Translations under genes and position numbers: made by a program | The notes under the pieces: model-generated | The model's input: only the letters and a program-made list of their open reading frames with translations | Database searches by the model: none | Told to the model about the DNA's origin: nothing | From: Dehalococcoidia bacterium | GTDB taxonomy: Bacteria > Chloroflexota > Dehalococcoidia > Lucifugimonadales > JADFKI01 | NCBI GenBank assembly: GCA_963665605.1 | Contig: OY762409.1 | Span: 3,491,436-3,523,435, forward strand | Reading direction: 5' to 3' | Length of the DNA stretch: 32,000 nt | Part shown: positions 3,185 to 28,873 of the stretch, in pieces | Layout of the letters: the number at the start of each line of letters is the position of its first letter | Position numbering within the stretch: the first letter of the stretch is position 1

Positions 3185-4750
3185 GTGAAGTACGACTACA
3201 TCGTCATCGGCGCAGGTTCGGCGGGAGCAATCCTTGCCACAAGGCTCTCTGAAGACCCAAACATCTCGGTGCTTCTGCTGGAAGCGGGTCAGGACTATCC
3301 GGACATTGACAGCCTGCCAGAGGAAGTCAGGCACAGCTACGAGTCCACAAAGAGCATCTGGGACAGTGACCACAACTGGCAGTACACGGCGCGCGGCACC
3401 TCGGAGGCCGAGATTGAGATTCCACGAGGCAAGGTGACCGGCGGCTCCAGCGCCATCAACGGTACGGTCTTCCTGCGCGGCATCCCTGAGGACTACGACA
3501 ACTGGGCGGAATGGGGCAACGACGAGTGGAACTTCCAGCAGCTTGTACCCTACTTCAACAAGCTGGAGACCGACACTACCTACCAGGACGACCCCGGTGA
3601 CTTCCACGGCGCCAACGGCCCAATCATCTGCCGCCGCTTCATGCAGGACGAATGGCGTGAGGGCAACAAAGCCTGGTTCGAGGCATGGCGGGAGAGTGGT
3701 CAAGGTTACTGCGAGGACCATAATGCGCCCGGCACAACGGGTGTTGGTCCCATACCCCTGAACAATCCCAATGGCATCCGCTGGTCCACGTCCATCGGAT
3801 ATCTTGGCCTCTCGCGCCACCGCCTGAATCTCACCATCAGGGCGAACGTGACCGTCAAGAAGGTTCTCTTCGATACTACCGGTGACAGCCCCAGGGCGAC
3901 GGGAGTCGAGGCGGTCTCTGACGAAGAATCCTTCGTCGTTGAGGCTGATGAGATCATCCTGAGCGCAGGCGCGATTGGTTCACCACAGATACTCATGCTC
4001 TCGGGCATTGGTCCGAGCGACCACCTCAGAGAACACGGCATTCGGACGGTAATCGACTCGCCCGGAGTGGGACAGAACCTAGCCGACCATCCCCTCCTCA
4101 GTATCCTGTGGGCGACGAAGCCGGACGTCGAGTTAGAGCGCTTCGTGCCCAACGCTCAGCTTGTCGTGCGTTACTCTGCCGAAGGCTCGCCTCTTGAGAA
4201 CGACATGATCGTGTATCTCTCAGCCGCCTCCGGGGTAGATCGCAAGCACGGCGGAGCGCACACCGACGTCGTTGGAATGGGCGCCGGCCTCGGGCTAAAC
4301 CTGGCGCACTCCAAGGGCGAGTTGCGACTTCGTTCCGGCGACTACCGGGACCATCCTTACCTCGATTACAACCTCCTGGACCACGAGGAAGACCTGCGCA
4401 GGTACAGAGATGGTGTGCGCCTGGTGGTCAGCCTCGAAGATCATCCGGCAATGGCTGCTATGATCGACAAGAGGGTCTATCCGGAGGATTCAGATCTGGA
4501 GTCGGACGATGCGCTGGACCTATGGATGAAGACGTGGGTTGGGACGGGCCACCATATCTCCTGCACCGCCAAAATGGGACCGAGGTCAGACCCGATGGCC
4601 GTCGTGGATCAGTACGGCAAGGTTTACGGCGCGGAGGGACTGAGGGTGGTGGACGCATCCATCATGCCTGAGTGCGTCCGCGCAAATATCAACGTCACCG
4701 TGTTGATGATTGGCGAGCGCATCGCAGACCTCATCAAGCAGGGGAAGTGA
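3185..4750 (+). CDS. GMC-family FAD-dependent oxidoreductase (choline/alcohol dehydrogenase-like)
   Basis: N-terminal FAD fold YDYIVIGAGSAGAILATRLSEDPNISVLLLEAG. GMC signature GKVTGGSSAINGTVFLRG. C-terminal active-site region GTGHHISCTAKMG...VVDASIMP. GTG start with AGGAGG 6 nt upstream. Confidence 0.95.
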   Translation: MKYDYIVIGAGSAGAILATRLSEDPNISVLLLEAGQDYPDIDSLPEEVRHSYESTKSIWDSDHNWQYTARGTSEAEIEIPRGKVTGGSSAINGTVFLRGIPEDYDNWAEWGNDEWNFQQLVPYFNKLETDTTYQDDPGDFHGANGPIICRRFMQDEWREGNKAWFEAWRESGQGYCEDHNAPGTTGVGPIPLNNPNGIRWSTSIGYLGLSRHRLNLTIRANVTVKKVLFDTTGDSPRATGVEAVSDEESFVVEADEIILSAGAIGSPQILMLSGIGPSDHLREHGIRTVIDSPGVGQNLADHPLLSILWATKPDVELERFVPNAQLVVRYSAEGSPLENDMIVYLSAASGVDRKHGGAHTDVVGMGAGLGLNLAHSKGELRLRSGDYRDHPYLDYNLLDHEEDLRRYRDGVRLVVSLEDHPAMAAMIDKRVYPEDSDLESDDALDLWMKTWVGTGHHISCTAKMGPRSDPMAVVDQYGKVYGAEGLRVVDASIMPECVRANINVTVLMIGERIADLIKQGK

Positions 4751-4940: not shown

Positions 4941-6323
4941 CTATGATAGACGTCTCAGTCGTCCCTGGGTCAGCAGCACAATAACCATGATCGCAATGAG
5001 CGCGAAGCCCATGAATCCGATGACCGTCTGGCCACCCAGATAGTCGGTGAGGAACCCAGCGGGCGTGATGCTGAGTGGCATCAGGCCGTAATTGAGCATG
5101 AACAGGCTCATGATTCTCCCGCGATACTCCGGGTTAGCCTTTTCGATTATCAGCGTCTGATTGAGAGCCTGACGTCCCGAGTCGCCAATGCCCAGAAGAA
5201 TCATGATGACGGCGGCAATGTTGTAAACGGGAATCGCAGCAATCAACACGAGGCCGACACCAGACATTATGGTCGCTATTATCAGGCCCATGCCCCTGTA
5301 TCGCTGGCCCATAGACGCTACATAAAGTGAGCCGAACATTGAGCCCATTCCCATCAGTCCGACGAGAAGTCCCATGGAATCGGGGCCCTGCCGGTAGATG
5401 TCAACGACGAACACGGGCAGGATAAACCGGAAGGGCATCGCAAGCATTGTCGCGGCCAGTCCCATTAGGAGCAGCACGAGAAGGATTCGGCGTTGCCACA
5501 CGTGAGTTATGCCATCAGCGATGTCACGGAGCATATCCGTCTTGCCTGAAGTTGTCCCCGCCGAACCTGTCTTGGGTAGGAACGAGGTGAGGACAACCGC
5601 TGCCAGGGTTAACGCGCCAATGAGATAGAAGACGTTCCAGGGTCCGACCAGCGCGTATATACCACCTGCTAGCGCGGGCGCGGCCATTGTGGTAGCACTG
5701 ATGCCAGCCGCGTTCAATGCCATCGCATTCGTCAGCTTTTCCGACCCAACAAGCTGGGGAATTATCGCCTGTCTCGCGGGCATCATGAATGCCCAAAGCC
5801 CGCCCGTAACCATTGATGAGATCAGGAGGTGCTGCCAGGCGATAACCTCGAAATCGATCGCGAGACCGATCACCAGAGACAGACAGCCTGCGACGAGCTG
5901 TGCAACCTGAATGATAGTTTTCTTCTCGAACCTGTCCGCTACCACACCACCGAAGAGGGGAATGGTCAGCATGGGGACAGCGATGCCCAGATTGATGATG
6001 CCGAGCACTGAGGCAGAGCCGGTTATGTCATATACGAGATAGCTCTGTGCCAGCATCTGCATCTGTGTCCCCGCCATGAGGAACAGCATCCCGACCCACA
6101 GAAATAGGAAGTTACGATTGGAGAGCGAGTCAAATGTAGTTAGCCTGGGGCCACGCGGGAGTCGCACAGAAATGCCGGCTCTGAGCGCGCTGGATGTCGC
6201 GCCTCTGGCTGAGTGCAGGGGTTCTCCGGCGCCGTCTGCCGCCGCATGACTCACCGCGCGTTCCGCGGCCACGGAAGAAACCGCCAGTGCTGAGTTCTGA
6301 ATAGGCGGCGAAGAATCTGACAT
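4941..6323 (-). CDS. MFS transporter (MFS_3/EntS-like by N-terminal motif)
   Basis: 460 aa, about 12 hydrophobic helices, with LSNRNFLFLWVGMLFLMAG at the first helix. The roughly 60-aa Ala/Ser-rich N-terminal extension has no SD before the ATG at 6323, so the true start may be internal. Confidence 0.85.
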   Translation of the reverse strand: MSDSSPPIQNSALAVSSVAAERAVSHAAADGAGEPLHSARGATSSALRAGISVRLPRGPRLTTFDSLSNRNFLFLWVGMLFLMAGTQMQMLAQSYLVYDITGSASVLGIINLGIAVPMLTIPLFGGVVADRFEKKTIIQVAQLVAGCLSLVIGLAIDFEVIAWQHLLISSMVTGGLWAFMMPARQAIIPQLVGSEKLTNAMALNAAGISATTMAAPALAGGIYALVGPWNVFYLIGALTLAAVVLTSFLPKTGSAGTTSGKTDMLRDIADGITHVWQRRILLVLLLMGLAATMLAMPFRFILPVFVVDIYRQGPDSMGLLVGLMGMGSMFGSLYVASMGQRYRGMGLIIATIMSGVGLVLIAAIPVYNIAAVIMILLGIGDSGRQALNQTLIIEKANPEYRGRIMSLFMLNYGLMPLSITPAGFLTDYLGGQTVIGFMGFALIAIMVIVLLTQGRLRRLS

Positions 6324-6552
6324 GAGACAAAGCTACTCAATACCCGGTGACAAAGCAATAGAAGCTGCGGCGCGTAGAGAGGCGTGTCCTTGACCACCTG
6401 AGCAGTTCTGGGTTAGATTCAACGCCATATCCAGTTGACGGAAGACTATTCTGCGGAGCACGCTGTTCGCGCGTGCCACGCTCCGACTTTCGGCAGGCCA
6501 ACTAACCTCAGCATCACGCTACTTTGCAGATCACCAGAGAAGGAGAATCATC

Positions 6553-7314
6553 ATGCCGTTCTACGAAAGTGGCTCCAGCCGTATCTACTATGAAGAAGTT
6601 GGGTCGGGATTCCCTCTACTGATAATTCCGGGCGGAGGGCTTAATTCCACCGTGGCGTCGCTTGATACCTCGGTGCCCTTCAACCCAATGAAGACTTACC
6701 GGGACGACTTCCGATGTATCGCCGCCGACCTGCGCAATGCTGATCTGGGGCAGTCCAGCGGACCACTGGAGATCGACGGGCCCTGGGATGCCTACTCAGA
6801 AGACCAGCTTGGTTTGATGGACCATCTGGGCATTGATGAGTTCCTGGTCATGGGCTTCTGCATAGGCGGGCCGATGATCCACAATCTACTCAAATTAGCC
6901 CCGGAGCGCATCGTCGCGGCAGCAATGATGCAACCCAGCGGCTTCAATCCGGAAGCGCCGGATATTTTCTATCAGAACAATACAGCGCGGTGGGGGCCAC
7001 CACTCTGCGAAAGGCGTTCAGAAATCACATCGGGCATGGTCCACGACTTCCTGACCAGCATGTACACTGACCGCGCAGATTTCGTTTTCACCGTTTCCTG
7101 CGATTTCGTGCGTAACCTGCAGACTCCACTGCTGATAGCACCAGACGATGTGCCTGCGCACCCATACGCCTGCGCGATGGAGGTTGCCGATCTCGCCCCG
7201 AACTCCGAGGTTACTATCTTTCCATGGAAGGACTCGCAGGAGCACATCGACGAGGTCGTAACCCACGCCCGGCGTTTCCTGAAGACCCATGAGCCGGTAG
7301 CTGCGACTACCTAA
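6553..7314 (+). CDS. Alpha/beta-fold hydrolase with Cys in the nucleophile elbow
   Basis: YYEEVGSGFPLLIIPGGG oxyanion region. The elbow reads VMGFCIGGP (G-x-C-x-G), like the Cys nucleophile of dienelactone hydrolase. GAAGGAG RBS. Confidence 0.85.
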   Translation: MPFYESGSSRIYYEEVGSGFPLLIIPGGGLNSTVASLDTSVPFNPMKTYRDDFRCIAADLRNADLGQSSGPLEIDGPWDAYSEDQLGLMDHLGIDEFLVMGFCIGGPMIHNLLKLAPERIVAAAMMQPSGFNPEAPDIFYQNNTARWGPPLCERRSEITSGMVHDFLTSMYTDRADFVFTVSCDFVRNLQTPLLIAPDDVPAHPYACAMEVADLAPNSEVTIFPWKDSQEHIDEVVTHARRFLKTHEPVAATT

Positions 7315-8395: not shown

Positions 8396-9253
8396 ATGCT
8401 TGCGGACCTGGTTGAAGTCACGACACCTGATGGAATCCCGCTGAGTGGCGCCTATTTCGCGCCGACAAGCACGGGTCGCTCACATTCGATAGATGCCATA
8501 CTGTTCTTTCATGGCGATGGCGGCAACTTCTACAGCAGCCTTTATCTCTGGATGGGGCAGCGCATGTCGGAACAGGGCATAGCGTTCCTGACAGCCAACC
8601 GCAGGGGCCACGACCACATCGCTGCCGGTGCAAGAGGAGGGCCGCTAGCGGGATATGCCTTCGAGTCTGTTGATGACTCGCGAGCGGACTTCGGAGCGTG
8701 GCTTGACTTGCTGCGTGAGAGGGGGCACCGCCGCATAGCCATCGGAGGGCACAGCGGTGGAGCCGTGCGTGCCGCCTATGCGCAGGCACGGGAGAAGTTC
8801 GCAAATGTAGTGGCGGTGATACCGGTGTCTCCCGGCGAGTATGACCACGAAGGAATTATTGCACTGCACGGGGATGACTTCGCGGAGCCGTTTGGGGAGT
8901 CTGAGCGGAACATCGCTGAGGGCCGCCCGGATACGCTGCTTCGTCCAGGAGTTCCCTGGGGGTCAACGTGGAGTGCGCGCTCCTTTGTGGACTGCTTCAA
9001 TCGGGACAACCGATACAGCGTGACCACCCACGGGGCAAACACGGGTTGCCCAACGCTGTTCATATTCGGCTCCGAAGAATGCGCCGTCGGTGGACAGCAG
9101 GAGCTTCCGGTGTGCGGCGCTGCGCGACGAAGCCTCGGTGCTGCGGGCTACGCGCACGTGGACGTAGTGGAAATTGACGGAGCCAATCACGGATACTTAG
9201 AACGTGAACAACAACTGTTTGAGACGATGTTTTCTTGGATCGGCGGGCTATGA
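8396..9253 (+). CDS. Alpha/beta-fold hydrolase
   Basis: ILFFHGDGGNFYS oxyanion region, GGHSGGA nucleophile elbow (GxSxG), conserved late GANHGY. AGGAGG RBS upstream. Confidence 0.85.
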   Translation: MLADLVEVTTPDGIPLSGAYFAPTSTGRSHSIDAILFFHGDGGNFYSSLYLWMGQRMSEQGIAFLTANRRGHDHIAAGARGGPLAGYAFESVDDSRADFGAWLDLLRERGHRRIAIGGHSGGAVRAAYAQAREKFANVVAVIPVSPGEYDHEGIIALHGDDFAEPFGESERNIAEGRPDTLLRPGVPWGSTWSARSFVDCFNRDNRYSVTTHGANTGCPTLFIFGSEECAVGGQQELPVCGAARRSLGAAGYAHVDVVEIDGANHGYLEREQQLFETMFSWIGGL

Positions 9254-9728
9254 CGGGCTGTGATCAACTATAAGCCCTGACACCGTCTCAAGAGTCCATC
9301 CTATCGAATCTGATCCGCCTCGGAATCGCACCTGCCTGACGGATTCACTTTGCTGGCTTTTGCAATGTACGTCTGCCCTCTGATCGCCTTCGGGTGGCAC
9401 GATCAGACCGTTAGAATCGAGAACGCCATCCCTCCTTTGGGAAACGCGGAGAGCTATTGAGTCGCGCCGTAATTTCTTACACCTGATGCGGGGTAGCGCA
9501 GCGGCGTAACTCAGTTGTGTTGGTACATTGCGAGCATCCTTTGCGAATGCAATATTTGCTCCTTTACAGAGATTTTGGTCGGCTGTAAAATCACAAGGGC
9601 GCAGAGTACGGGCGACAATCATTCGCTTATGTAAGGCTTGCTCAAGATTCACCTCCATCTATGCCGTTCGTCGAACTCGCATCTAATCGGGTCTTAGTAA
9701 CCCTACCTTCGAAAATTCAGCACGGGGA

Positions 9729-12224
9729 TTGTCTTTCACTATGAACCAAATACTCGAAAAAATGAGCTTGCTCGTAACGGTACGACCATACATTACGCTC
9801 GTTGTCTTGCTCGCTATTACCGTATTGCTTGCCGCTGGGACTACGCTGCGCGTACCTCCGACGGAAGGCGCAGATGTAGCTTTTCTTCCGCCCGGGCACG
9901 CCGTCGCCAATGCGGCGCAGGAAATAGATGAGCTATTCGGGGACTCCGGCGACGTGAGCGTCGTCACACTCATTTTCCGCGGAGATGCGCTCACACCAGG
10001 CGGACTCTCCCAGATGTCCGGCCTGATCAACAAGATTGTCAGCGACCCGGCTGTAGGTGGGTTGCTGGTACCCGCCGACCCGGTAATCGCACCCTCTTTT
10101 CTGGTTCAGGCTGCGCTCCAATTGGAAAACCTGGAGTCGATCACGCAGGCAGAAATCGACGCTGTCGGCAATGTCCCACAAATTGGAGGGGCTATCGCCG
10201 CGATGACCGGAACCGACACGGACGGTACACCGGTTGCGATTGCCAACATTAGCCTGAGTGATACGGGTGAGGAAAGGGTCAAAGACGCGGAGCGGAGGAT
10301 CAACGAGTTAGCGGTGGGGGATAGTGGTCCTCTAGCTGTGAGCAGTCTATCACCCGCGATAGTCGAGGACGAGTACAGGGAAGCCACGGAATCGGGAATG
10401 GGGCCGCTTATAGGACTGGCACTGCTACTGATAACGGGGCTGCTCTTCCTGTTCACTCGCACCATCTCTGATACGCTGCTGACGCTATTAGGGCTCATAC
10501 TGTCGTTGACCTGGATTATCGGGGCAGAGGGCTGGCTAGGCCCGGAAGGGATCGGCCTGATAGGGCCACCGAGTTCGCTCACTGCGATGGTCCCGGTCAT
10601 CATCATCAGCCTCACAGTGGATTACGCAATCCAGGCGGTCTCCCATTATCGCGAGCAGCGTGCTGAAGGCGAGCCGGTTATTCAGGCAGTACGCAACGGG
10701 CTTCGAAACGTGACTGTGCCGCTTACACTGGCAGCCGTCACGACGATCGTCAGCCTGCTGGCTACCCTGTTCTCGCCGATCGGGGTGATTGGCGACTTCG
10801 GCATCGTCGCGGGACTGGGCGTCGGGTTGAGCCTGATAGTGATGCTGACACTGATACCGGCGGGCAGGACGATCATCGATCGGCGGCGCGAGTCGCGCGG
10901 TACATTGCCGCCTCCTCGCCCGCTCGCGAATGCATTGCCTGGGGTTAGCCAGATGGCGGAGCAGTTGGGCAGATGGGTTACGCGCAGGCCGGCACCCTAC
11001 ATTGTCGTCGTAATCTTGATCACCATAGGGCTTGGGTATGCCGCAACCGGCTTGAAGTCGGAATTCAGCATCCGCGACATCCTCCCCAGAGGTGGAAGCG
11101 TGGTCGAGGACATGGACACCCTCGAAGCCGCTGTCGGTGGTTCGACTGAGATCGCAACCCTCCTTGTGAAAGCCGAGGCGACGGAAACCCGCACTCTTCT
11201 GAATCTCCAGGATCTGACTTCTTCCTTCGGGGATGAGAATCGCCGTCCGCGTGCAGCGGCAGGCCCGATCCAGACGTCATATTATGCACATCTGCGAGAC
11301 TGGATCGACGACTCCGGCGAGCCCGGCGACAAATACGACCCTGAGCTTGAAGCACTTTTCCACCAGGCTTCAGCCGAGGTAGAACTTGATCCGGCTCTGA
11401 TGCAGGAATTACTCGATAAGCTTGTCGCGAGAGAGCCGGAACTGGCGCGCTTCCTGGTCAACGATCCACAGGGCATAGACACAATGTTGCTGCAGTTCCC
11501 AACTTATCTGGGCGATCCGGAGCAGTCCAGGATGATTCAGGAGGAAACAGAGGCGCTATGGTTCGGCGATGACAGCCACGTCACGGCGACTTCACCTAGC
11601 ATCGTCGCAGTCGCGGTTACGGACCAGATTACCGACGGCCAGACGGAGTCAATCAGCACTACCATTGCTGTGGCGCTGGGCATCCTCACTATCTTCTTCT
11701 GGGTGACGCTGCGCCAGCCGGCTCTGGGATTCGTCGCTGTGGGGCCCATCGTCCTCGTCCTCGTCAGCGTGCTGGGCACTATGGCGCTGTTGGACATCCC
11801 CTACACACTTGTCACCTCGATTATCACCGCGTTATCAATCGGCATAGGTGTGGACTACACCATACATGTCATTCACCGATACAGGGAGGAATACTTCCGC
11901 CTGCGCAACCCGGAGAGAGCGGCGGTTCGAACACTCGCGACTACGGGTTCGGCGTTGCTCGGATCTGCGCTGACGACGGCCATGGGATTTGGAGTGCTGA
12001 TTGCCTCACCGTTGCAGGCGTCGCAGCAGTTCGGCATCACGGCGACAATTACCATCGTCTATTCGCTGATAGTCTCCATACTGGTCGTGCTGCCCGCGAT
12101 GGTGGTCTGGGGGGCGTACCAGAACATGAGGCTTCGCTCCTCGATTGAACGCATGTGGAGCGAGCTTGACGTGGCAATTGAGGATATACATCTCCGACAC
12201 GAGAGGGGAGAGGGCGCATCGTAG
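9729..12224 (+). CDS. RND-superfamily MMPL/HpnN-like (HAE3-type) lipid transporter
   Basis: 831 aa with 1+5 / 1+5 TM topology and two large extracytoplasmic loops. Duplicated proton-relay Asp-Tyr motifs occur in the equivalents of TM4 and TM10 (SLTVDYAIQ and GIGVDYTIHVIHRY), as in MmpL/HpnN proteins. The track start at 9729 is TTG; the ATG at 9741 is an alternative. Confidence 0.9.
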   Translation: MSFTMNQILEKMSLLVTVRPYITLVVLLAITVLLAAGTTLRVPPTEGADVAFLPPGHAVANAAQEIDELFGDSGDVSVVTLIFRGDALTPGGLSQMSGLINKIVSDPAVGGLLVPADPVIAPSFLVQAALQLENLESITQAEIDAVGNVPQIGGAIAAMTGTDTDGTPVAIANISLSDTGEERVKDAERRINELAVGDSGPLAVSSLSPAIVEDEYREATESGMGPLIGLALLLITGLLFLFTRTISDTLLTLLGLILSLTWIIGAEGWLGPEGIGLIGPPSSLTAMVPVIIISLTVDYAIQAVSHYREQRAEGEPVIQAVRNGLRNVTVPLTLAAVTTIVSLLATLFSPIGVIGDFGIVAGLGVGLSLIVMLTLIPAGRTIIDRRRESRGTLPPPRPLANALPGVSQMAEQLGRWVTRRPAPYIVVVILITIGLGYAATGLKSEFSIRDILPRGGSVVEDMDTLEAAVGGSTEIATLLVKAEATETRTLLNLQDLTSSFGDENRRPRAAAGPIQTSYYAHLRDWIDDSGEPGDKYDPELEALFHQASAEVELDPALMQELLDKLVAREPELARFLVNDPQGIDTMLLQFPTYLGDPEQSRMIQEETEALWFGDDSHVTATSPSIVAVAVTDQITDGQTESISTTIAVALGILTIFFWVTLRQPALGFVAVGPIVLVLVSVLGTMALLDIPYTLVTSIITALSIGIGVDYTIHVIHRYREEYFRLRNPERAAVRTLATTGSALLGSALTTAMGFGVLIASPLQASQQFGITATITIVYSLIVSILVVLPAMVVWGAYQNMRLRSSIERMWSELDVAIEDIHLRHERGEGAS

Positions 12225-12250
12225 GCGGCACGCTCCGGAGGTTTTCCTAC

Positions 12251-13303
12251 ATGTTGAAGAGTCTCTCGCAACTTCGTGAACTATCCACAGGGCTGAAGTC
12301 CGCGTACCGCGGCTTCGACACCCACCTCCGCACGAGAGAATTCGAAGGCTGGACTGACAGGGCGAGCGTGGAGGATGACGGTGCGATCGGCTACGACCAC
12401 GCTGAAACCGTCAAGGAATACTATGACCTTTGCGGTGAGTTCATGTTGTTCGGTTGGGGCGAATCCCTACACTTCGCACCGCTATCGCCCCGCGAAAGCT
12501 TGGAGGACTCCAAGATACGGCATCAGCGACTGATGATTGCCAAATTGGAGTTGCTCGAAGGGATGACAGTCATTGATATTGGCTGTGGGATAGGTGGCCC
12601 GATGCGCCGCGTCGTCCGGGAGGCCGGAGTCAGGGTAGTTGGAGTCAACAACAACGAAATCCAGCTGAAGAAAGCGAAGTCGTTGAATACTGAGGCGGGC
12701 ATCGCCCACATGGTTGATTATAAGGCTTGCAGCTTCATGGATATGGGCACCGTCGCTGACGACACTTTTGATCGGGGCTACGCGATAGAGTCGACTTGCC
12801 ATGCGCCGGATAAGGCGGGAGCGTTCGCCGAGATATACCGAGTGCTGAAACCCGGCGCGCTTTTCTGGGGTCAGGAAATGTGCCTGACGGACGAGTTCGA
12901 CCCCGACGACAGGCGACACCGCGCCATCAAGCGGGAGTTGATGCACGGGATCGCGCTCAAGGACATAGCGACGATGGGCGAGGTCAACCGCGCTCTCGAA
13001 GCGGCGGGATTCCAGGTCATCGAGGGGAGAGACCATGCCGTCGAGGGGGACAGTCAGACCACGCCTTGGTATCAGCCGATGGAAACCCGGCACGGAACGC
13101 TAGGCGACGCTCTGCGTAGGACTCCACTGGGCCGCAAGTTGATGATGTGGGCATCTAGGCTTGCAGAGGCAGTGGGGGTGTTTCCGAAAGGCTCCTCGGA
13201 CGTAATAGGTCTGATGGATCGTACCGCCAACGCCTATGTCGAGGGTGGCAGGGCGGGCATTTTCACACCGCTGTACTGTTTTCTGGCTCGCAAGCCGCTT
13301 TAG
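12251..13303 (+). CDS. Sterol 24-C-methyltransferase (SMT/ERG6) family SAM-dependent methyltransferase
   Basis: All SMT signature regions are present. Region I: YYDLCGEFMLFGWGESLHFAP (12419-12478). SAM motif: VIDIGCGIGGP (12569-12601). YAIESTCHAP (12779-12808). Sterol_MT_C-like tail: TPWYQPM...LGRKL...PKGSSDV...EGGRAGIFTPLYCFLARKP. It aligns along its length with yeast ERG6 as I recall it. GGAGG RBS, 26 nt after the RND stop codon. Confidence 0.9.
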   Translation: MLKSLSQLRELSTGLKSAYRGFDTHLRTREFEGWTDRASVEDDGAIGYDHAETVKEYYDLCGEFMLFGWGESLHFAPLSPRESLEDSKIRHQRLMIAKLELLEGMTVIDIGCGIGGPMRRVVREAGVRVVGVNNNEIQLKKAKSLNTEAGIAHMVDYKACSFMDMGTVADDTFDRGYAIESTCHAPDKAGAFAEIYRVLKPGALFWGQEMCLTDEFDPDDRRHRAIKRELMHGIALKDIATMGEVNRALEAAGFQVIEGRDHAVEGDSQTTPWYQPMETRHGTLGDALRRTPLGRKLMMWASRLAEAVGVFPKGSSDVIGLMDRTANAYVEGGRAGIFTPLYCFLARKPL

Positions 13304-13354
13304 AAATCTTGGTCGCGGTCCGTCGTCCAGACTGTCGGGCGTGCCCGTGGCGCA

Positions 13355-15382
13355 CTAGAAGTTAATCTCGTGCCGCTGCTCGGCGATGCGGAACTTCAGC
13401 TTCTTGCTTGGCTTCATGGATGGCAGCGGACTGAACTTGAGCTTGTAGTCGCCAGGCGACACCTTGAGCGTAAAGTAATGCGCGACCATGAGCACATTGA
13501 CGGCGAGCTGCGTTTCCATCCACCGCGAGCCGAGACAAATATGCGTGCCCAGTCCGTAGGGCGCGTATCCGGGGCTGTGGTGCTCGTTGCGCGGTGGCAG
13601 GTATCGGTCTATGTCGAATGTGGTCGAGTCGGGAAAGAACTCGTCCATGAAATGGGTCGCCGCCTGAGCGATAACGAGCTTCGCTCCCAACGGTAGCTGA
13701 TAACCTTCGACCATGCACGAATTCATCACATGCCGCATAGACACAGGCACTATTGGGTAGAGGCGCAGGCTCTCCATGAGGAAGCGATGGGTGACATCGA
13801 TCGAGGACGGAGTGAGGTCTTCGGGATTCGGGTCGCCGTTCTCGAATAGTGCGTCGGCCTCTTCTTGGATCCTGGCGTAGATTTCAGGTTGCGAGGCCAT
13901 TGCGTATAGCGCGAAGCTGAACGCGTCGCCAAGGTACACACTGGCAATCAAAGCCGCCGATAGAGCGAATCGCAGGTTCGACTCCGGGTAGAACTGTGGG
14001 TCGCTCGCGTGTAGGCTCAGAATGTCGTCGGCAAGATTTCTAGAAGCGTCAGCCCGCTGAGCGGGCGTATGCACGCTCTGTATTCGTTCCAGTAAGATGT
14101 CCACCGATTTCGCGCGGCGTCTCATGCCCGGGGTTTTCAGCATGAATTTGGGCAGAGCCTTCACGATGTGAGTGCTGAGCGCCCGCTCCTTGTACTCCGC
14201 CAAGTCGTCAAAGATGTCCTGAGAATCGACGCTGACAAAGAGCGGAGAAATCTGTGAGTTTATCATTCGGCGGCACATGCGCGTGGCGGGGTAGGCGTCT
14301 CCAACCGTCCACTCTGCCATATGTTTCCGCGCGTAATTGATTAGCTGGTCCATCTCGCCCATTAATCTGTTGCGAGAATATGCCGGCGACAAGGACTTGC
14401 GGAGGCGAAAATGGTCTGCCCCGTCCATCGAAGGCAATACCCCGGACGCGCCATAGACCTTTTCGAAGTCGGAAAAGTAGTCCCTGGTTCTCAGATGCAG
14501 GCGTCCTTGCCGATGCACCCAGCGATTCGTGTCTGCCCCTGCCAGGACTATTATCGGCTCGGTTAACGGAGGCCGCAGTTCGAATACTGGGCCGTACTCG
14601 CGCGCGAGGTCCGCGAAGAGCGCGGGGACGTTTCCGGTGCGAATATGCGGATTGAACAGCAGCTTGCTCAGAGAGACGACAGGGATTTTCCTGGTGAGGC
14701 TGGATTGTCGGAGCGCCGGACCCGCGAGGTTGTGGGAGACTGCATTGGTGATTGCCCGTCCGATCAAGTCAATCTTGGAAATGGCTTGGATACGCGCTTC
14801 CACCTCGTCATCCAACTGGAATATGAAGCGCAATACGTCGCACGTATTGAGCAGGCCGATGATGATGACCTCTCTCGGATAGGGAATCACATCATTGAAC
14901 AGCACCCTTCTGATGCGCGATGCGATGAACTCAGTCGCGGTGCCGTCTTCGTCATCGAAGTTCATATCTGCTCGACCGACAGTTCGGGATAGCGTCCAGA
15001 ACTCTCCGTCGTGATGCTCAAGGATATTCAGATGGACAAGTCGGTCCAGAGTCAGCTCGATGATCGACTCTGCACGAGGAGCGAGCCTTTCGATCCAGTA
15101 CTGCGCGTCCCGTTGAGTCGTTTCCTCCGCAATCGTCTTGAGGATGGGATCGAGGACAGGATCGCCGACTTCGGTCTGATCCAGAAGAATCAGGGAATCC
15201 CTGTCCGTGTCAATGCGAGAAATGAGCGATAACTCAGCGAGTACGGCGCCAATGACGGCGCAGTTTAGGTCCCAGCCCGGGACCTGATGGAAGTATCCGG
15301 TCTCCTCGTTGAGGAGCATCAGAATCAACTCTTCCGGCAAGCTTAGAGGCTGAGTCGTCACACCTTCCATTAAGAGAGTCAC
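13355..15382 (-). CDS. Fusion protein: N-terminal GPP34/GOLPH3-like domain plus C-terminal cytochrome P450
   Basis: The first ~230 aa (about 14693-15355) match the GPP34 pattern: LPEELILMLLNEETGYF...AVIGAVLAELSLISRI...DPVLDPILKTI...WIERL. The remainder is a P450 with ExxR (ESLRLYP) and the haem loop PYGLGTHICLG. The Cys-616 codon TGT is at 13535-13537, checked by hand. GTG start with AGGGAG 8 nt upstream. Confidence 0.9.
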   Translation of the reverse strand: MTLLMEGVTTQPLSLPEELILMLLNEETGYFHQVPGWDLNCAVIGAVLAELSLISRIDTDRDSLILLDQTEVGDPVLDPILKTIAEETTQRDAQYWIERLAPRAESIIELTLDRLVHLNILEHHDGEFWTLSRTVGRADMNFDDEDGTATEFIASRIRRVLFNDVIPYPREVIIIGLLNTCDVLRFIFQLDDEVEARIQAISKIDLIGRAITNAVSHNLAGPALRQSSLTRKIPVVSLSKLLFNPHIRTGNVPALFADLAREYGPVFELRPPLTEPIIVLAGADTNRWVHRQGRLHLRTRDYFSDFEKVYGASGVLPSMDGADHFRLRKSLSPAYSRNRLMGEMDQLINYARKHMAEWTVGDAYPATRMCRRMINSQISPLFVSVDSQDIFDDLAEYKERALSTHIVKALPKFMLKTPGMRRRAKSVDILLERIQSVHTPAQRADASRNLADDILSLHASDPQFYPESNLRFALSAALIASVYLGDAFSFALYAMASQPEIYARIQEEADALFENGDPNPEDLTPSSIDVTHRFLMESLRLYPIVPVSMRHVMNSCMVEGYQLPLGAKLVIAQAATHFMDEFFPDSTTFDIDRYLPPRNEHHSPGYAPYGLGTHICLGSRWMETQLAVNVLMVAHYFTLKVSPGDYKLKFSPLPSMKPSKKLKFRIAEQRHEINF

Positions 15383-15464
15383 CAGTCTTGCTCCCTGTGC
15401 GTAATACTGATTGATTCAGCCCATTTGACTCAAGGATACCCTAGCGCGCTGGTCGCGGAAAGGG

Positions 15465-15474
15465 GTACATGTAC
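15465..15474. promoter_or_regulatory. Perfect palindrome GTACATGTAC in the divergent P450/Rieske intergenic region
   Basis: Seen directly. Three CCATTT(G/A) copies also lie at 15420-15427, 15504-15510 and 15570-15577 in the same 278-bp divergent promoter region. Short motifs like these can arise by chance. Confidence 0.2.
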
Positions 15475-15660
15475 AATTCAAATAGGAACTCTCGTAATTT
15501 GGTCCATTTGTAACAGTTGCCTGAGTGCAGGATGTCATGTCCAGGCCGACCATCCTTGCATAAGATATCCCATTTACCAACAATGAGCGGATATTTAGAG
15601 AGTCGCTGTTCTCGGGCTGGCAGACTTGGCTGGACAAAAGGTGAGTGTGAGGGCTGATAG

Positions 15661-16695
15661 ATGGTTACCAGACGCAGAGAATTCACATACGTTCAGTCGC
15701 CCGATCCCTTCCCCGAAGGTTGGTACTTCGTCGCTACTCGAAAGGCCGTACTAAAGGCCAAGCTCATTCAGAAGACTTGGATGGGCGAGAACATCGTTGT
15801 CTGGAGTGACAAGAATGACCGCGTCTGTGTAGCCGAAGCCGTCTGTCCACATCTTGGAGCCGATCTCGGACCATCAGCCGGGGGCAGCATACGCGACGGA
15901 CGGCTGTTATGTCCTTTCCATGGCTACGAGTTTGACGCCACTGGACAATGCGTCGGCACTCCTTTTGCCCCTCCTCCCAGGGCAGCGAAGCTGCGAGTCT
16001 TCGAGACGCAGGAGATTCTCGGCCTGATCTTCGCATGGTGGGGCATCGGGGGACGTGAACCGCAATGGCGCCTACCCGATGATACTTTGGGGGAAGTTGG
16101 ATGGGGCGAATTCATAATCAACACCCTCCGTTTTCCCGGTCATCCACAGGAAACAGCGGAAAACTCGGTAGATCTGGCACATCTCCGCTATGTGCACGGC
16201 TACGATAACGTGAATCCAATCGTGGAGGCGGATGTGGACGGCCCACGCCTGAAAACTCGCTTCGACTTCAAGAGAACACGAACAATCGCGGGCGCCGTAA
16301 ACCTCACCTTCGATATTTCTGCCAGCGCAACCATCGTAGGTCTTGGCTATTCGTTTGTGGAGGTACGGGAGCATTCGATTGGCATGGATTTGCGCCTGTG
16401 GGTGCTAGCGACGCCAGTCGATGGGAATCTCATTGACATGACTCTGGTTTCACAGGCGCGGGAGATACGAAAGCCGAAGCGAATATTTGCAGGCCTTGGG
16501 TTTCTCCCCGTGGGTCTCCGCGCTCCCATTATCAATAGATTCATGGCCTCTCAGCAAAAGCAGGACGTTCTTCAGGACGTGGTTATCTGGAGCAAAAAAC
16601 AGTACCGGTCCCGCCCGCGACTCTCGCGCTCTGACGGCAAAATCATGCCGTTCAGGCACTACTGCACCCAGTTCTACCCCGACCCAGAGGATTAG
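15661..16695 (+). CDS. Rieske [2Fe-2S] non-haem-iron oxygenase, KshA/Neverland-like
   Basis: Rieske motif CPHLGADLG-x13-CPFHGYEF (C62, H64, C84, H87; 15844-15921). Mononuclear-iron motif ENSVDLAHLRYVH (DxxHxxxxH; 16171-16197). GAGGG RBS. Confidence 0.9.
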   Translation: MVTRRREFTYVQSPDPFPEGWYFVATRKAVLKAKLIQKTWMGENIVVWSDKNDRVCVAEAVCPHLGADLGPSAGGSIRDGRLLCPFHGYEFDATGQCVGTPFAPPPRAAKLRVFETQEILGLIFAWWGIGGREPQWRLPDDTLGEVGWGEFIINTLRFPGHPQETAENSVDLAHLRYVHGYDNVNPIVEADVDGPRLKTRFDFKRTRTIAGAVNLTFDISASATIVGLGYSFVEVREHSIGMDLRLWVLATPVDGNLIDMTLVSQAREIRKPKRIFAGLGFLPVGLRAPIINRFMASQQKQDVLQDVVIWSKKQYRSRPRLSRSDGKIMPFRHYCTQFYPDPED

Positions 16696-16884
16696 GACAA
16701 CTTCCTCGGCACTTGCCTTGAACGAGACAGGTTGGCTGACGCCTTCCCTTTCTTGCAGTCCGTTGTGGCAGATCTTGTCCAGAGAGCCGGCCGATTCATC
16801 TTCGTAGATGCTCCTTGATGCCCTCAGTTTCCTGCAACTCTAGTAAGCCACGGCAATTGTGGCGGATTATTTCCAAACGCCTTG

Positions 16885-18291
16885 TCAGCTCAGGATCGGC
16901 CATTCAGGTTGCGGGTCTATACCAAGCCGCTTCGCTCGCGAAATGACCGAGTCAGAGACGTTTCGGTAAGACTCGTCCTCGTCCACTCGTGTTGAGTGGC
17001 CTCCACTGAAGATGATTTCACCGTTGACAATGACCGTATCCACGCTTCCGGCTCCCATCGTTAGCGTGAGGAGGTGGAGCGGGTTGTTGGCAGGGTAGGA
17101 TTCGGCCGCCCGCGCGGACCTCACAACGACATCCGCACGCTTTCCGGCTTCCAGGCTTCCCAGTTCCGTGCTCATGCCCGCTGCCGCAGCTGCGTTGATT
17201 GTCTGCATCTCGAGCAAGGCCTCAGGGGAAAGGGGATCGTCGTAGGTCTGTGACGCGAACCGTCCAGCAAGCATGGTATGTCCGGGTGTGCTGTCCCGCG
17301 CAGCGTCGGTGCCAAGCGCGACAGGTACTCCTCTGCGATGTCGTTCTGCCATCTTGAAATGCGCACTGCTTCCAAGTCCGAGCGAGAAGAAGGCAGCAGG
17401 ACACCAAACGATCTGACAGCCGGATTGCTGTACCGCCCTTTCCTCCGCTTCGTCCAGTACGTTGGCATGGACGATGGCGGTGTGCTCGTCAAGGACGCCG
17501 AGTTCTTGCATGTGAACGAACTGGCTGACGCCGTTCAAAGCTCGATAGATTTCTGCTTCCTCCGGCACGTACCCGGCGTGCAGATGCAATGGCACATTGT
17601 TGTCGCGAGCGCATTGATGGGCAGCCTGCAATAGCGCGGGTGAAGCAGTTCCTAGTCCATAGATGAAAACGAAGCCTCGGACTAGAGCATCGGAGTCACT
17701 GTTGCGGTGAAGTTCCACATCCAGCTGCTCAAGTGACCGGTCGAGATTCACGGGTGCGCGATCCGTCAGACTCGGACTCACCAGTGATGGAATCGCATCG
17801 AAGGTCTCCTGCCGGTCCCAGAGGTAGAGCGGGCCGAAAAGTGCTCTCAGACCCACGCGTTCTACCGCTTGCGCCGCCGCATCGGTTGCAAACAGCGAGC
17901 CTGGCTCGATAAACATCGTGAAGCCACATCGAAGCATTTCCAGTCCGGCCATGGCGGTTGCCGCAGCCTCGTCTTCATCGGTAACTCCCGCCTTCCAGTC
18001 TGCGAAATTGACGGACGATGAGCCGGAGTTCCGCACGTTGGCGAACACCCCCCTGCAGGAAGTATGAACGACGTGATTGTGGGCGTCGATGAAGCCGGGA
18101 TGAACTATGCCGCCTCCTGCATCCACGGTCTGCTTCGCATCGAAGCGTTGCAGTAACTCGCTATCCGCGCCAACTTCCACGATGCGCGAGCCGGTGATCG
18201 CCACCGCACCCGGACGGAGAATCCTGCGTTCGGCATCTACCGTGACGACCTGGCCGTCGCGAATGAGGATATCGCATGTGCGCTTGTTCAT
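16885..18291 (-). CDS. Metal-dependent amidohydrolase-superfamily protein (deaminase/chlorohydrolase-like)
   Basis: N-terminus CDILIRDGQVVTVD, HxH metal motif HPGFIDAHNHV, later HLHA and HANV motifs and GTDA. The track ORF begins at GTG 18363. The ATG at 18291 (MNKRTCDILI...) has GGAG 8 nt upstream and gives a typical family N-terminus. Confidence 0.9.
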   Translation of the reverse strand: MNKRTCDILIRDGQVVTVDAERRILRPGAVAITGSRIVEVGADSELLQRFDAKQTVDAGGGIVHPGFIDAHNHVVHTSCRGVFANVRNSGSSSVNFADWKAGVTDEDEAAATAMAGLEMLRCGFTMFIEPGSLFATDAAAQAVERVGLRALFGPLYLWDRQETFDAIPSLVSPSLTDRAPVNLDRSLEQLDVELHRNSDSDALVRGFVFIYGLGTASPALLQAAHQCARDNNVPLHLHAGYVPEEAEIYRALNGVSQFVHMQELGVLDEHTAIVHANVLDEAEERAVQQSGCQIVWCPAAFFSLGLGSSAHFKMAERHRRGVPVALGTDAARDSTPGHTMLAGRFASQTYDDPLSPEALLEMQTINAAAAAGMSTELGSLEAGKRADVVVRSARAAESYPANNPLHLLTLTMGAGSVDTVIVNGEIIFSGGHSTRVDEDESYRNVSDSVISRAKRLGIDPQPEWPILS

Positions 18292-18702: not shown

Positions 18703-20580
18703 ATGAAGCAAACTAAGTCCAAGCCGGCTGTCAGAAATTGGTCAACCATATCTATATTTGCGTCTATCACATTAGCGTTGATGTTCATCGCATACCTGCT
18801 GTCCTTCCCGGTGGCAAATGCCCAGACGAATAGGAGTCCGGTGGGTGCCTTGGAACGGGAGCTGAATGGTCATAGTTCGCTGAACGAGAGTGAGGAGGGA
18901 TTCGGGGGTGAGTACACTAGCCGGTCTGTGGCTAGCGGTTACCTTCATGATTCAGGTGATATTCAGAATGGTCGTGATACTGCTACTACTTACAAGGTTG
19001 AGCAATTGGAACAGAGTAACGCCACAGTTGCAATGCAGCTTACGCCAGTGCCGTCTGTCTCCGGCATCTCCATCTCTAGCGATTCTGGCAGCGACGGTAC
19101 GTATGCCACCGGAGACATCATTAAGGCGGCTGTTACCTTCGACGCCGCGGTGACCGTGGACACTACCGGCGGCACTCCGTACCTGGAGCTGACGCTAGGC
19201 AGCGACAGACAGAAGGCAACCTACTCTTCCATTAAATTGAGAAACACTGTCCTCATATTCACATACACCGTGGTCTCCTCTGACGACGATCAGGATGGGA
19301 TATCCGTTGTCGCCAACTCACTGGCGCTTGACGGTGGCACAATCGAGGCGAGGGGATCCGGCACGGATGCGCTGCTCGATCACACGGCGCTACCTGACCA
19401 GGGAGGTCACTTAGTCAACAAGATACCCAAGATAATTACGGACGGTATCGCAATTACCTCCACGCCTAAGGCAGCCGAAGACACATACGGGTTAGGAGAG
19501 ACGATCAAGGTCAGCGTACCGTTTGACTCCGTAGTGGTGGTAAGCGGTAACGACGTCATTCTGACCTTTATTGCTCGGTTCGGTGATGCGAACCATACCA
19601 ACCAGTCAAAGGCATTCTCCTACGTGGGAGGCTCAGGCACGAATACGCTAAACTTCGAACGCGTCGTAATCGCGATAGACGTGGACAGCGATGGCATTTA
19701 CGTGCCGAAATACCACTTGAATCTCCAGGGAGGCACGTTGACGCATGCCACCACCGGTCGCAATGCGGACTTGAGCTACGGCCTTCCCGGTCAGATGGGC
19801 GCGTTTCCTGAGCACAAGGTTGACGGAAGTCTGCTACCGCCTTCTTCGTTCGGACTTTGTGGGGCGCGTGTTGGCACGGGAAGCGGCTTCGTACTAGACG
19901 CGGAGCTGGACCTGTGCTGGGAAACCGGAGCAGAGATTCCGGCGCGTAATGACGTTGTAATCGAATCTCGTTACAGGATCTTCTGGTATGACGGCGACCC
20001 GTTCTCGGAGTGGCGCGAAACCGGGCGTGGAAACGACTTTACCGCATGCTCCCAGGGTCGAAGCGATTGCATAAAGTTCACTCATCGAGGATTGATGCGA
20101 GGCTCACCGGCAACCTATGAGATGCGGATTCGTGAGGGTGACAACGTGCTGTCAACTTCAGGACAGCTGGATGCACAAGCGCCAAACGAGAACGATGCAA
20201 TACTGAACGCGGAACTGTACGGCTGCTATGAAATGGGCGGCTTTAAGCCCTGCGGAAATGCTGCGCGGGGCGCGTTCTGGATGGAACTGACATTTACTGA
20301 CCCGGAGGTTGAAGCACTGTCTGTTGAAACCGTCATCGGCCTCGAACCTTCCGACTTCGAGATAACCAACGGCGGCGTGCTGGCCGTCCAGCCCTGGGAT
20401 GGCACGGTTTACAGGGTTATCGTTTTGCCGGGAACACTGGGCCAACCGGTGACAATCAGCCTGCCTGCGAATCGTGCGAAGGGTGTCGGCGAAGGTATTA
20501 GCGCTGACGGCGGCAATAACTACACAAGGGTTAACACAGCATCGAATGTGGTGACGCAGCAAACGGCAGAGCGGGAGTGA
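18703..20580 (+). CDS. Secreted or cell-surface protein with two tandem beta-sandwich-like repeats, a Cys-containing central region and a C-terminal Ig-like domain
   Basis: Signal peptide MKQTKSKP...LLSFPVANA|Q. Repeat 1 (about 19054-19416): DGTYATGDIIKAAVTFDAAVTV...LIFTYTVVSSDDDQDGISV...LALDGGTIEA. Repeat 2 (about 19432-19824): EDTYGLGETIKVSVPFDSVVVV...LNFERVVIAIDVDSDGIYV...LNLQGGTLTHA. C-terminus: PSDFEITNGGVLAV...YRVIVLP...PVTISLPAN. GAGGAG RBS. Confidence 0.85.
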   Translation: MKQTKSKPAVRNWSTISIFASITLALMFIAYLLSFPVANAQTNRSPVGALERELNGHSSLNESEEGFGGEYTSRSVASGYLHDSGDIQNGRDTATTYKVEQLEQSNATVAMQLTPVPSVSGISISSDSGSDGTYATGDIIKAAVTFDAAVTVDTTGGTPYLELTLGSDRQKATYSSIKLRNTVLIFTYTVVSSDDDQDGISVVANSLALDGGTIEARGSGTDALLDHTALPDQGGHLVNKIPKIITDGIAITSTPKAAEDTYGLGETIKVSVPFDSVVVVSGNDVILTFIARFGDANHTNQSKAFSYVGGSGTNTLNFERVVIAIDVDSDGIYVPKYHLNLQGGTLTHATTGRNADLSYGLPGQMGAFPEHKVDGSLLPPSSFGLCGARVGTGSGFVLDAELDLCWETGAEIPARNDVVIESRYRIFWYDGDPFSEWRETGRGNDFTACSQGRSDCIKFTHRGLMRGSPATYEMRIREGDNVLSTSGQLDAQAPNENDAILNAELYGCYEMGGFKPCGNAARGAFWMELTFTDPEVEALSVETVIGLEPSDFEITNGGVLAVQPWDGTVYRVIVLPGTLGQPVTISLPANRAKGVGEGISADGGNNYTRVNTASNVVTQQTAERE

Positions 20581-28816: not shown

Positions 28817-28873
28817 TGGCGTGACCAACGCGTGTCGGTCAATGTCTATGAATTGGACTCACGGAGGTGTGTC

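Follow-up and report, generated by a model that had tools for sequence, protein, structure and literature searches.

A conserved four-gene neighborhood of demosponge symbionts with a candidate role in sterol modification and export

Four genes around a GPP34–P450 fusion

We examined a 32,000-nucleotide stretch of the Dehalococcoidia bacterium assembly GCA_963665605.1 (contig OY762409.1, positions 3,491,436 to 3,523,435, forward strand), referred to below as the window, with positions counted from its first letter. Within it, a gene encoding a fusion of a GPP34 domain to a cytochrome P450 lies among genes for an RND-superfamily transporter, a methyltransferase of the sterol methyltransferase (SMT) family, and a Rieske oxygenase. 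The original prediction, made from the letters alone, read these four genes as a candidate module for the modification and trafficking of sterols or cyclic triterpenoids. The genes and their parts are listed here, with gene coordinates from the list of open reading frames (ORFs) and domain assignments from Pfam.

9729–12224, + strand: RND-superfamily transporter of the MMPL/HAE3 type, with a sterol-sensing-domain-like membrane region; 831 aa from a TTG start
12251–13303, + strand: SMT-family methyltransferase dependent on S-adenosylmethionine (SAM), of the "module-type" clade; 350 aa
13355–15382, − strand: GPP34–cytochrome P450 fusion, the published GPP34_L; 675 aa
14735–15340, − strand: GPP34 (GOLPH3/Vps74-like) domain of the fusion, residues 15–216
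13394–14641, − strand: cytochrome P450 domain of the fusion, residues 248–663
15383–15660, no strand: divergent intergenic region of 278 bp between the fusion gene and the Rieske gene, putatively regulatory by its position alone
15661–16695, + strand: KshA-type Rieske non-heme iron oxygenase; 344 aa

All four genes are intact ORFs at the positions originally given, and the predicted spacings are exact (26 nt between the transporter and SMT genes, 278 bp between the divergent fusion and Rieske genes). Pfam searches matched each expected domain: MMPL, Sterol_MT_C plus a methyltransferase domain, GPP34, p450, and Rieske. A consensus scan of positions 9200–17000 for promoters and terminators returned nothing exceeding shuffled expectation, and no sigma-70-like site in the 278-bp region.

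The four proteins are 94–98% identical to those encoded on MPND01000021 of SAR202 cluster bacterium bin90 (locus L001; Chloroflexota), and likewise 94–98% identical to all four encoded on Ga0209021_1000393 (L125) from IMG metagenome 3300027386, which is listed as Aplysina aerophoba (Brown et al., 2023, Nat Commun, PMC10070321). The fusion protein is 98% identical to that of L001, and the window as a whole matches the SAR202 genome and the A. aerophoba contig at about 98%. By this identity, the window is assigned to a Chloroflexota (SAR202/Dehalococcoidia) symbiont of a demosponge.

The 675-aa fusion ORF matches both Pfam GPP34 (E-value 3e-30, 106 bits against a cut-off of 29.1) and p450 (6.4e-34), and has more than 120 homologues at 71–100% identity, all about 675 aa long. 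The predicted architecture thus stood, but the protein is not unknown: it has been described as GPP34_L, a monophyletic set of 656 proteins confined to sponge symbionts (Ferreira et al., 2025, Microbiome, PMC11706023), with which it shares the N-terminal GPP34 domain, the C-terminal P450, the length of about 675 aa, and the restriction to sponge symbionts. GPP34_L occurs in most symbiont genomes of about 14 phyla, with evidence of horizontal spread, and GPP34 genes, GPP34_L included, are transcribed in A. aerophoba (Ferreira et al., 2025). The P450 domain carries the heme-thiolate motif YGLGTHICLG and the ExxR motif. Its nearest solved relatives, at 15–21% identity, are CYP102-like enzymes, CYP184A1, taxadiene 5-alpha-hydroxylase, CYP51, CYP120, and CYP97. 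Identity as CYP51 itself was rejected, with CYP51 entries in the PDB matching at only about 1e-17, 19% identity in Foldseek, and a separate 491-aa P450 standing beside the fusion in the de novo sterol clusters described below. One Binatia locus (L015) has two copies of the fusion gene, at 4972–6996 and 9986–12013, which lie 3 kb apart with an AcrB/MFP pump (AcrB with a membrane fusion protein, MFP) upstream and an SMT of the de novo type between them.

The methyltransferase matches class I methyltransferase domains and also Sterol_MT_C (3.3e-16; 59.6 bits, cut-off 21.7). Aligned over 327 aa with yeast ERG6, whose sequence was entered by hand, it shows 35% identity (E 6e-68). It had been credited with every diagnostic SMT motif. 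This holds for the SAM-binding motif, which is IDIGCGIGGP in the window (LDVGCGVGGP-like) and is conserved in 52 module-type sequences, and for Region II, which is IESTCHAP (reference IEATCHAP) and invariant in the module-type clade. It does not hold for Region I, which reads MLFGWG rather than YEYGWG, or for Region III, where the window and the module type have GQEM in place of the canonical YEW. Two SMT clades occur in sponge-symbiont loci. The "de novo-cluster" SMTs retain DFYEYGWG and are 38–49% identical to ERG6, while the "module-type" SMTs are 64–100% identical to the window protein, 33–39% identical to ERG6, and have the Region I consensus efMvfGWgeSLHFA, with (M)(V/L)FGWG at its core. 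This altered Region I makes it plausible that module-type SMTs differ from classical C-24 SMTs in substrate or methylation position.

The Rieske protein bears out the predicted KshA-type motifs. It matches Pfam Rieske (2.5e-17) and KshA_C (7.6e-22, 78.8 bits against a cut-off of 23.3), and both the Rieske ligands CPHLGADL...CPFHGYEF and the mononuclear-iron motif NSVDLAHLRYVH (D-x2-H-x4-H) are present and aligned with KshA. Its best solved relatives are KshA 3-ketosteroid 9-alpha-hydroxylases (9.6e-25, PDB). Neverland/DAF-36, a cholesterol 7-desaturase, has the same combination of Rieske and KshA_C-type domains. The window protein shares the Rieske [2Fe-2S] center and the mononuclear-iron KshA_C-type catalytic domain with the KshA/KshB system but differs in having no KshB-type reductase nearby, and its context suggests tailoring and export rather than catabolism. 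The further likening to SdmA, the Rieske protein of sterol C-4 demethylation, had to be abandoned: the protein scores 33.7 bits against a cut-off of 600 on the SdmA model (NCBIfam NF052579), matching in the N-terminal Rieske part only, and true SdmA is a separate VanA_C-type gene in related loci, with an SdmA-like gene in a Nitrospirales locus (L035) scoring 405 bits and encoding a VanA_C domain.

The transporter, for which an ATG at 9741 is a likelier start than the TTG, matches Pfam MMPL (4.8e-44), Sterol-sensing (2.4e-13), and Patched SSD (2.7e-10), and its sequence matches in the PDB are Patched-1, MmpL4/5, HpnN, MmpL3, and NPC1. On NCBIfam models it reaches 5.4e-64 for HAE3, 2.7e-29 for HpnN, and 3e-8 for BstA, but every score is below its cut-off (216.5 of 351.9 bits for the HAE3 subfamily, 101.8 of 751.9 for HpnN, 32.1 of 1400 for BstA, and 33.1 of 1400 for MmpL3). 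It can therefore be placed at superfamily level, by Pfam MMPL and sterol-sensing domain (SSD), and not at equivalog level; of the label "MMPL/HpnN-like", the MMPL/HAE3 type remains and orthology to HpnN or BstA does not. The arrangement recalls HpnN and the BstABC system of Methylococcus capsulatus (eLife 2024, PMC10942540), in which the gene for an RND inner-membrane protein, believed to carry a polycyclic triterpenoid outward, lies beside those for sterol or hopanoid enzymes. It differs from these in that the window transporter is not orthologous, no BstB- or BstC-like genes were seen, and diderm carriers of the module use a tripartite AcrB-type pump.

Recurrence of the neighborhood across sponge symbionts

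We collected related loci from a scan of one genome per GTDB species, then searched the loci by tblastn with the window proteins and clustered all their ORFs. The fusion is encoded in 195 GTDB species genomes; all counts out of 80 given here refer to the best 80 of these and to the 10 kb around the fusion gene. These 80 loci comprise 43 from Dehalococcoidia/SAR202/Chloroflexota, 12 from Latescibacterota, and nine from Binatia, with others from Opitutales/Opitutia, Thermodesulfobacteriota, Syntrophobacterales, Nitrospirales, Acidimicrobiia, Alpha- and Gammaproteobacteria, and Gemmatimonadota. Despite this phylum-level spread, the fusion proteins show 66–100% identity.

The neighborhood recurs in these genomes, as the original prediction required if the genes were to be functionally linked. 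A KshA-type Rieske gene accompanies the fusion in 69/80 loci, an SMT homologue in 62/80, and some RND-superfamily pump in 74/80; the fusion, a module-type SMT, and the Rieske gene occur together in 53 loci, and all four functions in 49. The genes flanking the module in the window recur in at most eight of the 80, placing the module boundary at the four genes. Pairwise identities of the fusion, SMT, and Rieske proteins also co-vary across 43 loci (Spearman 0.56–0.57, Mantel p=0.001). Chance adjacency is excluded by the high recurrence of the three partners against at most 8/80 for other neighbors, together with the co-varying identities. Co-variation and a fusion identity of at least 66% across phyla fit horizontal sharing of the module.

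The pumps are of three non-orthologous kinds. An orthologue of the window transporter lies near the fusion in 42/80 loci, all from Chloroflexota save one Acidimicrobiia and one unclassified genome; a second HAE3/MMPL type occurs in Binatia and others; and in Latescibacterota, Opitutales, Gemmatimonadota, and some Binatia, a complete operon of AcrB, MFP, and outer membrane factor (OMF) lies directly upstream of the fusion. Such replacement of one pump by another suggests that export itself is the selected function, and the tripartite AcrB/MFP/OMF pump points to export from the cell rather than uptake. Beside the module in 14 Dehalococcoidia loci (at 16860–19100 in L022, and in 13 others) we also observed an MFS transporter paired with an LppX/LprAFG-like lipoprotein, a pair that we take to resemble the mycobacterial LprG–Rv1410c lipid-export pair.

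In 38/80 loci (for example, L014 19139–20527), though not in the window, the module has a frequent fifth member, whose product of about 462 aa resembles FAD amine oxidases (Pfam Amino_oxidase 1.2e-16).

Anchoring independently on the SMT, we recovered 76 loci from JGI metagenomes. All of the contig prefixes that could be identified belong to sponge metagenomes, with several Ga02 and JGI prefixes untraced. The prefix MKWU is, we presume, from A. aerophoba, LXNJ is from Petrosia ficiformis, LXNI from Sarcotragus foetidus, and JGIcombinedJ30088 and Ga0209021 from A. aerophoba (Brown et al., 2023). Of the JGI loci of at least 12 kb (n=42), 27 have the fusion gene and 17 the Rieske gene.

Sterol links, proposed function, and alternatives

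Some copies of the module directly adjoin sterol genes. ERG4/ERG24 sterol reductases (Pfam 8.9e-37) occur in 11/80 loci. At least six loci have the fusion gene embedded among genes for de novo sterol synthesis: L027 (Thermodesulfobacteriota), L035 (Nitrospirales), L042 (Binatia), L051 (Opitutales), and the A. aerophoba contigs L089 and L092. Such a de novo sterol cluster encodes an ERG4/24 reductase and a squalene monooxygenase fused to an oxidosqualene cyclase (SMO/OSC). Representative loci were further confirmed to contain SdmA (2e-121), SdmB (7e-83), and an additional P450, and several of the six carry extra SMT copies on either side of, or next to, the OSC. The fused SMO/OSC (L027 14131–17952) itself has more than 1,293 homologues, and the best 120 are all at least 77% identical and come from metagenome-assembled genomes labelled Nitrospira, Rhodospirillales, Alphaproteobacteria, and Acidimicrobiia; judging from this range, the de novo sterol cluster, too, seems to have carriers in several phyla.

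One of these loci connects the module to enzymes that have been assayed. The gene order of L089 matches that of cluster JGIcombinedJ30088_10000835 of Brown et al., 2023, and its two SMTs are 35.159% and 43.0% identical to ERG6, against 35.16% and 42.36% reported there. The agreement in order and identities indicates that gene 9 of that cluster, the "2 of 2" SMT of A. aerophoba (JGIcombinedJ30088_100008359), is a module-type SMT; the window SMT is 71.5% identical to it. The neighbors left unannotated in the published cluster are a Rieske fragment and a GPP34–P450 gene. The fragment, of the module type, lies between two SMT genes at 9146–10004 of L089 with no intact ORF, and may be a pseudogene or an assembly frameshift. 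The window shares its SMT family with the clusters of Brown et al., and in L089 the module-type SMT and the fusion adjoin SMO/OSC-CYP-ERG24-sdmA-sdmB. It differs in that those clusters are complete pathways, whereas a cyclase is missing from the window and the module mostly stands alone, and in that the window SMT belongs to a divergent clade without YEYGWG. Sponge-symbiont SMTs methylate desmosterol and 24-methylenecholesterol in vitro, and one module-type SMT was among the enzymes assayed (Brown et al., 2023).

The original prediction knew of no description of the four-gene combination. Two of its parts are published, namely the fusion (Ferreira et al., 2025) and an SMT of the clade (Brown et al., 2023), and their linkage was not found: full-text searches returned nothing that links GPP34–P450 with sponge-symbiont SMTs in the literature searched. 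The description of sponge-symbiont de novo sterol clusters mentions no P450 fusions, GPP34, or RND pumps and does not point out the KshA-type Rieske protein (Brown et al., 2023), while that of GPP34_L analyzes flanks for short GPP34 only and never mentions sterols or methyltransferases (Ferreira et al., 2025). Within the literature searched, the linkage appears to be new, and so does the reinterpretation, set out here, of GPP34_L and of a sponge-restricted SMT clade.

Conservation of the neighborhood, the ERG4/ERG24 reductases, and the de novo clusters support the view that the four genes form a modification and trafficking module for sterols or triterpenoids. Gene content, domains, conservation, co-divergence, and adjacency to sterol genes are what the comparison shows; from these we infer the substrate, the sequence of reactions, the part played by GPP34, the direction of transport, and the gain for the symbiosis. 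With moderate confidence, we propose that it is a horizontally shared module of demosponge symbionts that modifies sterols, mostly host-derived, and exports the product. A sterol would enter the symbiont membrane, probably from the host in most carriers and by de novo synthesis from an adjacent SMO/OSC cluster in a minority. The divergent SMT would use SAM to methylate the sterol at a double bond, which is probably one of the side chain, and the P450 and the KshA-like Rieske enzyme would then hydroxylate or desaturate the molecule, drawing on a ferredoxin and reductase encoded elsewhere. The GPP34 domain would serve as a membrane- or lipid-engaging accessory that brings a soluble oxygenase to a membrane-embedded substrate, and not as part of a secreted effector that binds phosphatidylinositol 4-phosphate (PI4P). 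In some genomes, the sterol may also be a substrate of an ERG4/24 reductase (11 loci) or of the FAD amine-oxidase-like enzyme (38 loci). Finally, the RND pump would remove the product from the cytoplasmic membrane; in diderms, export from the cell would fall to the tripartite AcrB/MFP/OMF pump.

Such use of host sterols would have a partial counterpart in Coxiella burnetii, an intracellular, host-associated bacterium that carries eukaryote-like sterol reductases without a full pathway. Both would have eukaryote-like sterol-tailoring enzymes, with ERG4/ERG24 homologues accompanying the module in the 11 loci noted above. The sponge system differs in being a multi-enzyme module with a dedicated exporter, found in about ten bacterial lineages of extracellular or mesohyl sponge symbionts.

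Several observations weigh against this proposal. The activities assigned to the four proteins are predictions, and sterol uptake is a putative step. No OSC lies within 10 kb of the fusion in most loci, the window included; for the window, the originally noted absence of both OSC and squalene epoxidase was borne out by Pfam searches of its other large ORFs and a scan for DCTAE/DDTA motifs. Neither a ferredoxin nor a reductase, KshB-type included, was found among the scanned window ORFs or among ORF families that are 90 aa or longer and recur in at least six of the 80 loci, a search that excluded ORFs below 90 aa and a few unannotated, lower-ranked families present in 4–5 loci. The canonical Region I motif of SMTs, YE(Y/F/W)GWG(x)SFHF, is replaced in the window by MLFGWGESLHFA, and module-type SMTs lack its Tyr81 and Glu82 (by comparison with the hand-entered ERG6 sequence). 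SMT-like enzymes can also methylate non-sterol triterpenes, as do the triterpene methyltransferases of Botryococcus. Of ten symbiont SMTs, a set that includes one module-type enzyme, two were inactive on desmosterol and 24-methylenecholesterol (Brown et al., 2023). In the I-helix of the P450 (residues ~479–486), the acid–alcohol pair ((A/G)Gx(E/D)T) is replaced by ASxYLGD, which does not vary among 42 homologues; this replacement suggests that oxygen is activated in an atypical way or that the reaction is not that of a monooxygenase. The AlphaFold2 model of the fusion, built with 42 homologues, was poor (pLDDT 61, pTM 0.49); Foldseek returned P450s alone for it, and it yielded no usable domain docking or GPP34 pocket.

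The loss of the canonical Region I is also one of several features that would suit another unsaturated, non-sterol lipid handled by the same module logic, with the product exported by the RND pump. Candidates are triterpenoids (squalene among them), lipids derived from carotenoids, and the long-chain "demospongic" fatty acids of sponges. The SMT scores equally on the cyclopropane synthase (CMAS) and Sterol_MT_C models. In 38/80 loci there is the FAD amine-oxidase-like protein; enzymes of this kind work with fatty-acid methylases to make furan fatty acids. Generic lipid exporters include MMPL/HAE3 pumps as well as the pair of LppX/LprG-like lipoprotein and MFS transporter present in some loci, and the nearest solved P450s include fatty-acid and terpene hydroxylases. 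Against these stand a Sterol_MT_C score well over threshold with full-length 35% identity to ERG6, a steroid hydroxylase (KshA) as the best solved relative of the Rieske protein, and the ERG4/ERG24 reductases and full sterol pathways directly adjoining the module in some genomes. We regard a non-sterol substrate as possible but doubtful.

A more specific form of the sterol proposal, which we think unlikely, takes the divergent, sponge-symbiont-restricted SMT to be a sterol side-chain methyltransferase of unconventional regiochemistry, for example the C-26 enzyme behind aplysterol and the "sponge biomarker" 26-methylstigmastane. Together with the GPP34-tethered P450 and the Rieske enzyme, it would turn host sterols into the unusual sterols so far credited to demosponges, for export back to the host, and GPP34_L would present sterols rather than act as a PI4P effector. 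A C-26 sterol methyltransferase is still undiscovered (Brown et al., 2023). If this version were true, part of the diagnostic sterol repertoire of sponges would be the work of about ten bacterial lineages and not of the animal.

GPP34_L has itself been proposed to be a eukaryote-like effector, secreted by the symbiont, that binds host PI4P on the phagosome and blocks phagosome maturation, thereby sparing the symbiont digestion (Ferreira et al., 2025). On that view, the neighboring genes for SMT, Rieske, and RND proteins would be accessory to the effector or have no relation to it. The GPP34 family does include the PI4P-binding GOLPH3 and Vps74 (the Pfam match of 3e-30), and its favor is also supported by the expression in hospite and by an occurrence that spans many phyla yet is strictly limited to symbionts of sponges (Ferreira et al., 2025). 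The residue-level comparison is mixed and rests on remote similarity between the fusion's GPP34 domain and GOLPH3 (phmmer E 0.24; hhalign probability 67%, with the GOLPH3 sequence entered by hand). An invariant Trp aligns with GOLPH3 W81 in hhalign, while phmmer places a Pro there and that Trp two residues off. R90 of GOLPH3 aligns with Ile both in phmmer (PDB 3kn1/9qpq) and in hhalign, a loss given moderate confidence in view of the remote similarity, and R171/R174 are not clearly kept, aligning with Glu/Ile or, after a two-residue shift, with Arg/Ser (hhalign). No N-terminal signal sequence is apparent in the fusion translation, judged by eye with no predictor used, and a heme P450 that needs electron donors would be an odd secretion cargo. 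The effector proposal was made without flank analysis of GPP34_L or mention of sterols (Ferreira et al., 2025), and the repeated tight linkage to SMT, Rieske, and RND genes, to sterol reductases, and even to complete sterol pathways argues against it. Rare GPP34–Rieske fusions, and P450 genes near unfused short GPP34, have also been reported (Ferreira et al., 2025), and offer Rosetta-stone support for GPP34 working with the oxygenases of the module. Gene context and the loss of GOLPH3 R90 thus point to lipid tailoring, and we judge the effector model improbable.

Least probable is that the KshA-like Rieske enzyme and the P450 start degradation of host cholesterol for carbon, as in Actinobacteria: among solved structures, the Rieske protein is closest in sequence to KshA, and P450s such as CYP125 do start cholesterol side-chain degradation, but no KstD, KshB, Hsa, FadD/FadE, or Mce4-type genes occur in the window or recur in the 80 loci, the module adjoins de novo biosynthesis clusters, and its conserved partners are a methyltransferase and an efflux pump, which fit biosynthetic tailoring and export rather than catabolism.

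The sterol module that we favor would link a "sponge symbiosis" protein, GPP34–P450, to sterol chemistry. GPP34_L is among the most widespread sponge-symbiont-specific genes, and the conserved module gives a concrete, testable alternative to the effector model. It also brings to light a clade of bacterial SMTs that is apparently limited to sponges and has a changed active-site motif, along with the partner enzymes of that clade, and bears on the sponge-biomarker debate over who makes the unusual side-chain-alkylated sterols (24-isopropyl, 26-methyl). If the product is exported to the host, the module would constitute a lipid-based channel between host and symbiont, spread by horizontal transfer through the whole microbiome.

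Other genes of the window

The remaining genes identified by Pfam are ordinary and unrelated to the module: a MarR regulator, a GMC oxidoreductase, an MFS transporter, alpha/beta-hydrolases, SDRs, an amidohydrolase, a metallo-beta-lactamase-fold protein, PhnD, a DDE transposase, a phosphotriesterase, and a polysaccharide deacetylase. A scan of the window for tRNA genes found none. The flanking SDR, alpha/beta-hydrolase, GMC, and amidohydrolase genes were considered as module members and rejected; they are not conserved, and the GMC oxidoreductase (3185–4750, + strand) is choline-dehydrogenase/MftG-like (9.4e-124, against 8.6e-6 for cholesterol oxidase).

An ORF of 625 aa (18703–20580, + strand) has no Pfam or NCBIfam match and is conserved only in the near-identical SAR202 locus L001, at 88%. 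The transposase gene (DDE_Tnp_1_4, Pfam 2.2e-60; 26909–28234, − strand) lies in a stretch of raised G+C (0.65, against about 0.57) and probably marks an insertion sequence, some 10 kb from the module. Adjoining it is the gene for a phosphotriesterase/OPH-like hydrolase (28832–29827, + strand; Pfam PTE 8.6e-66, NCBIfam OPH 8.5e-60).

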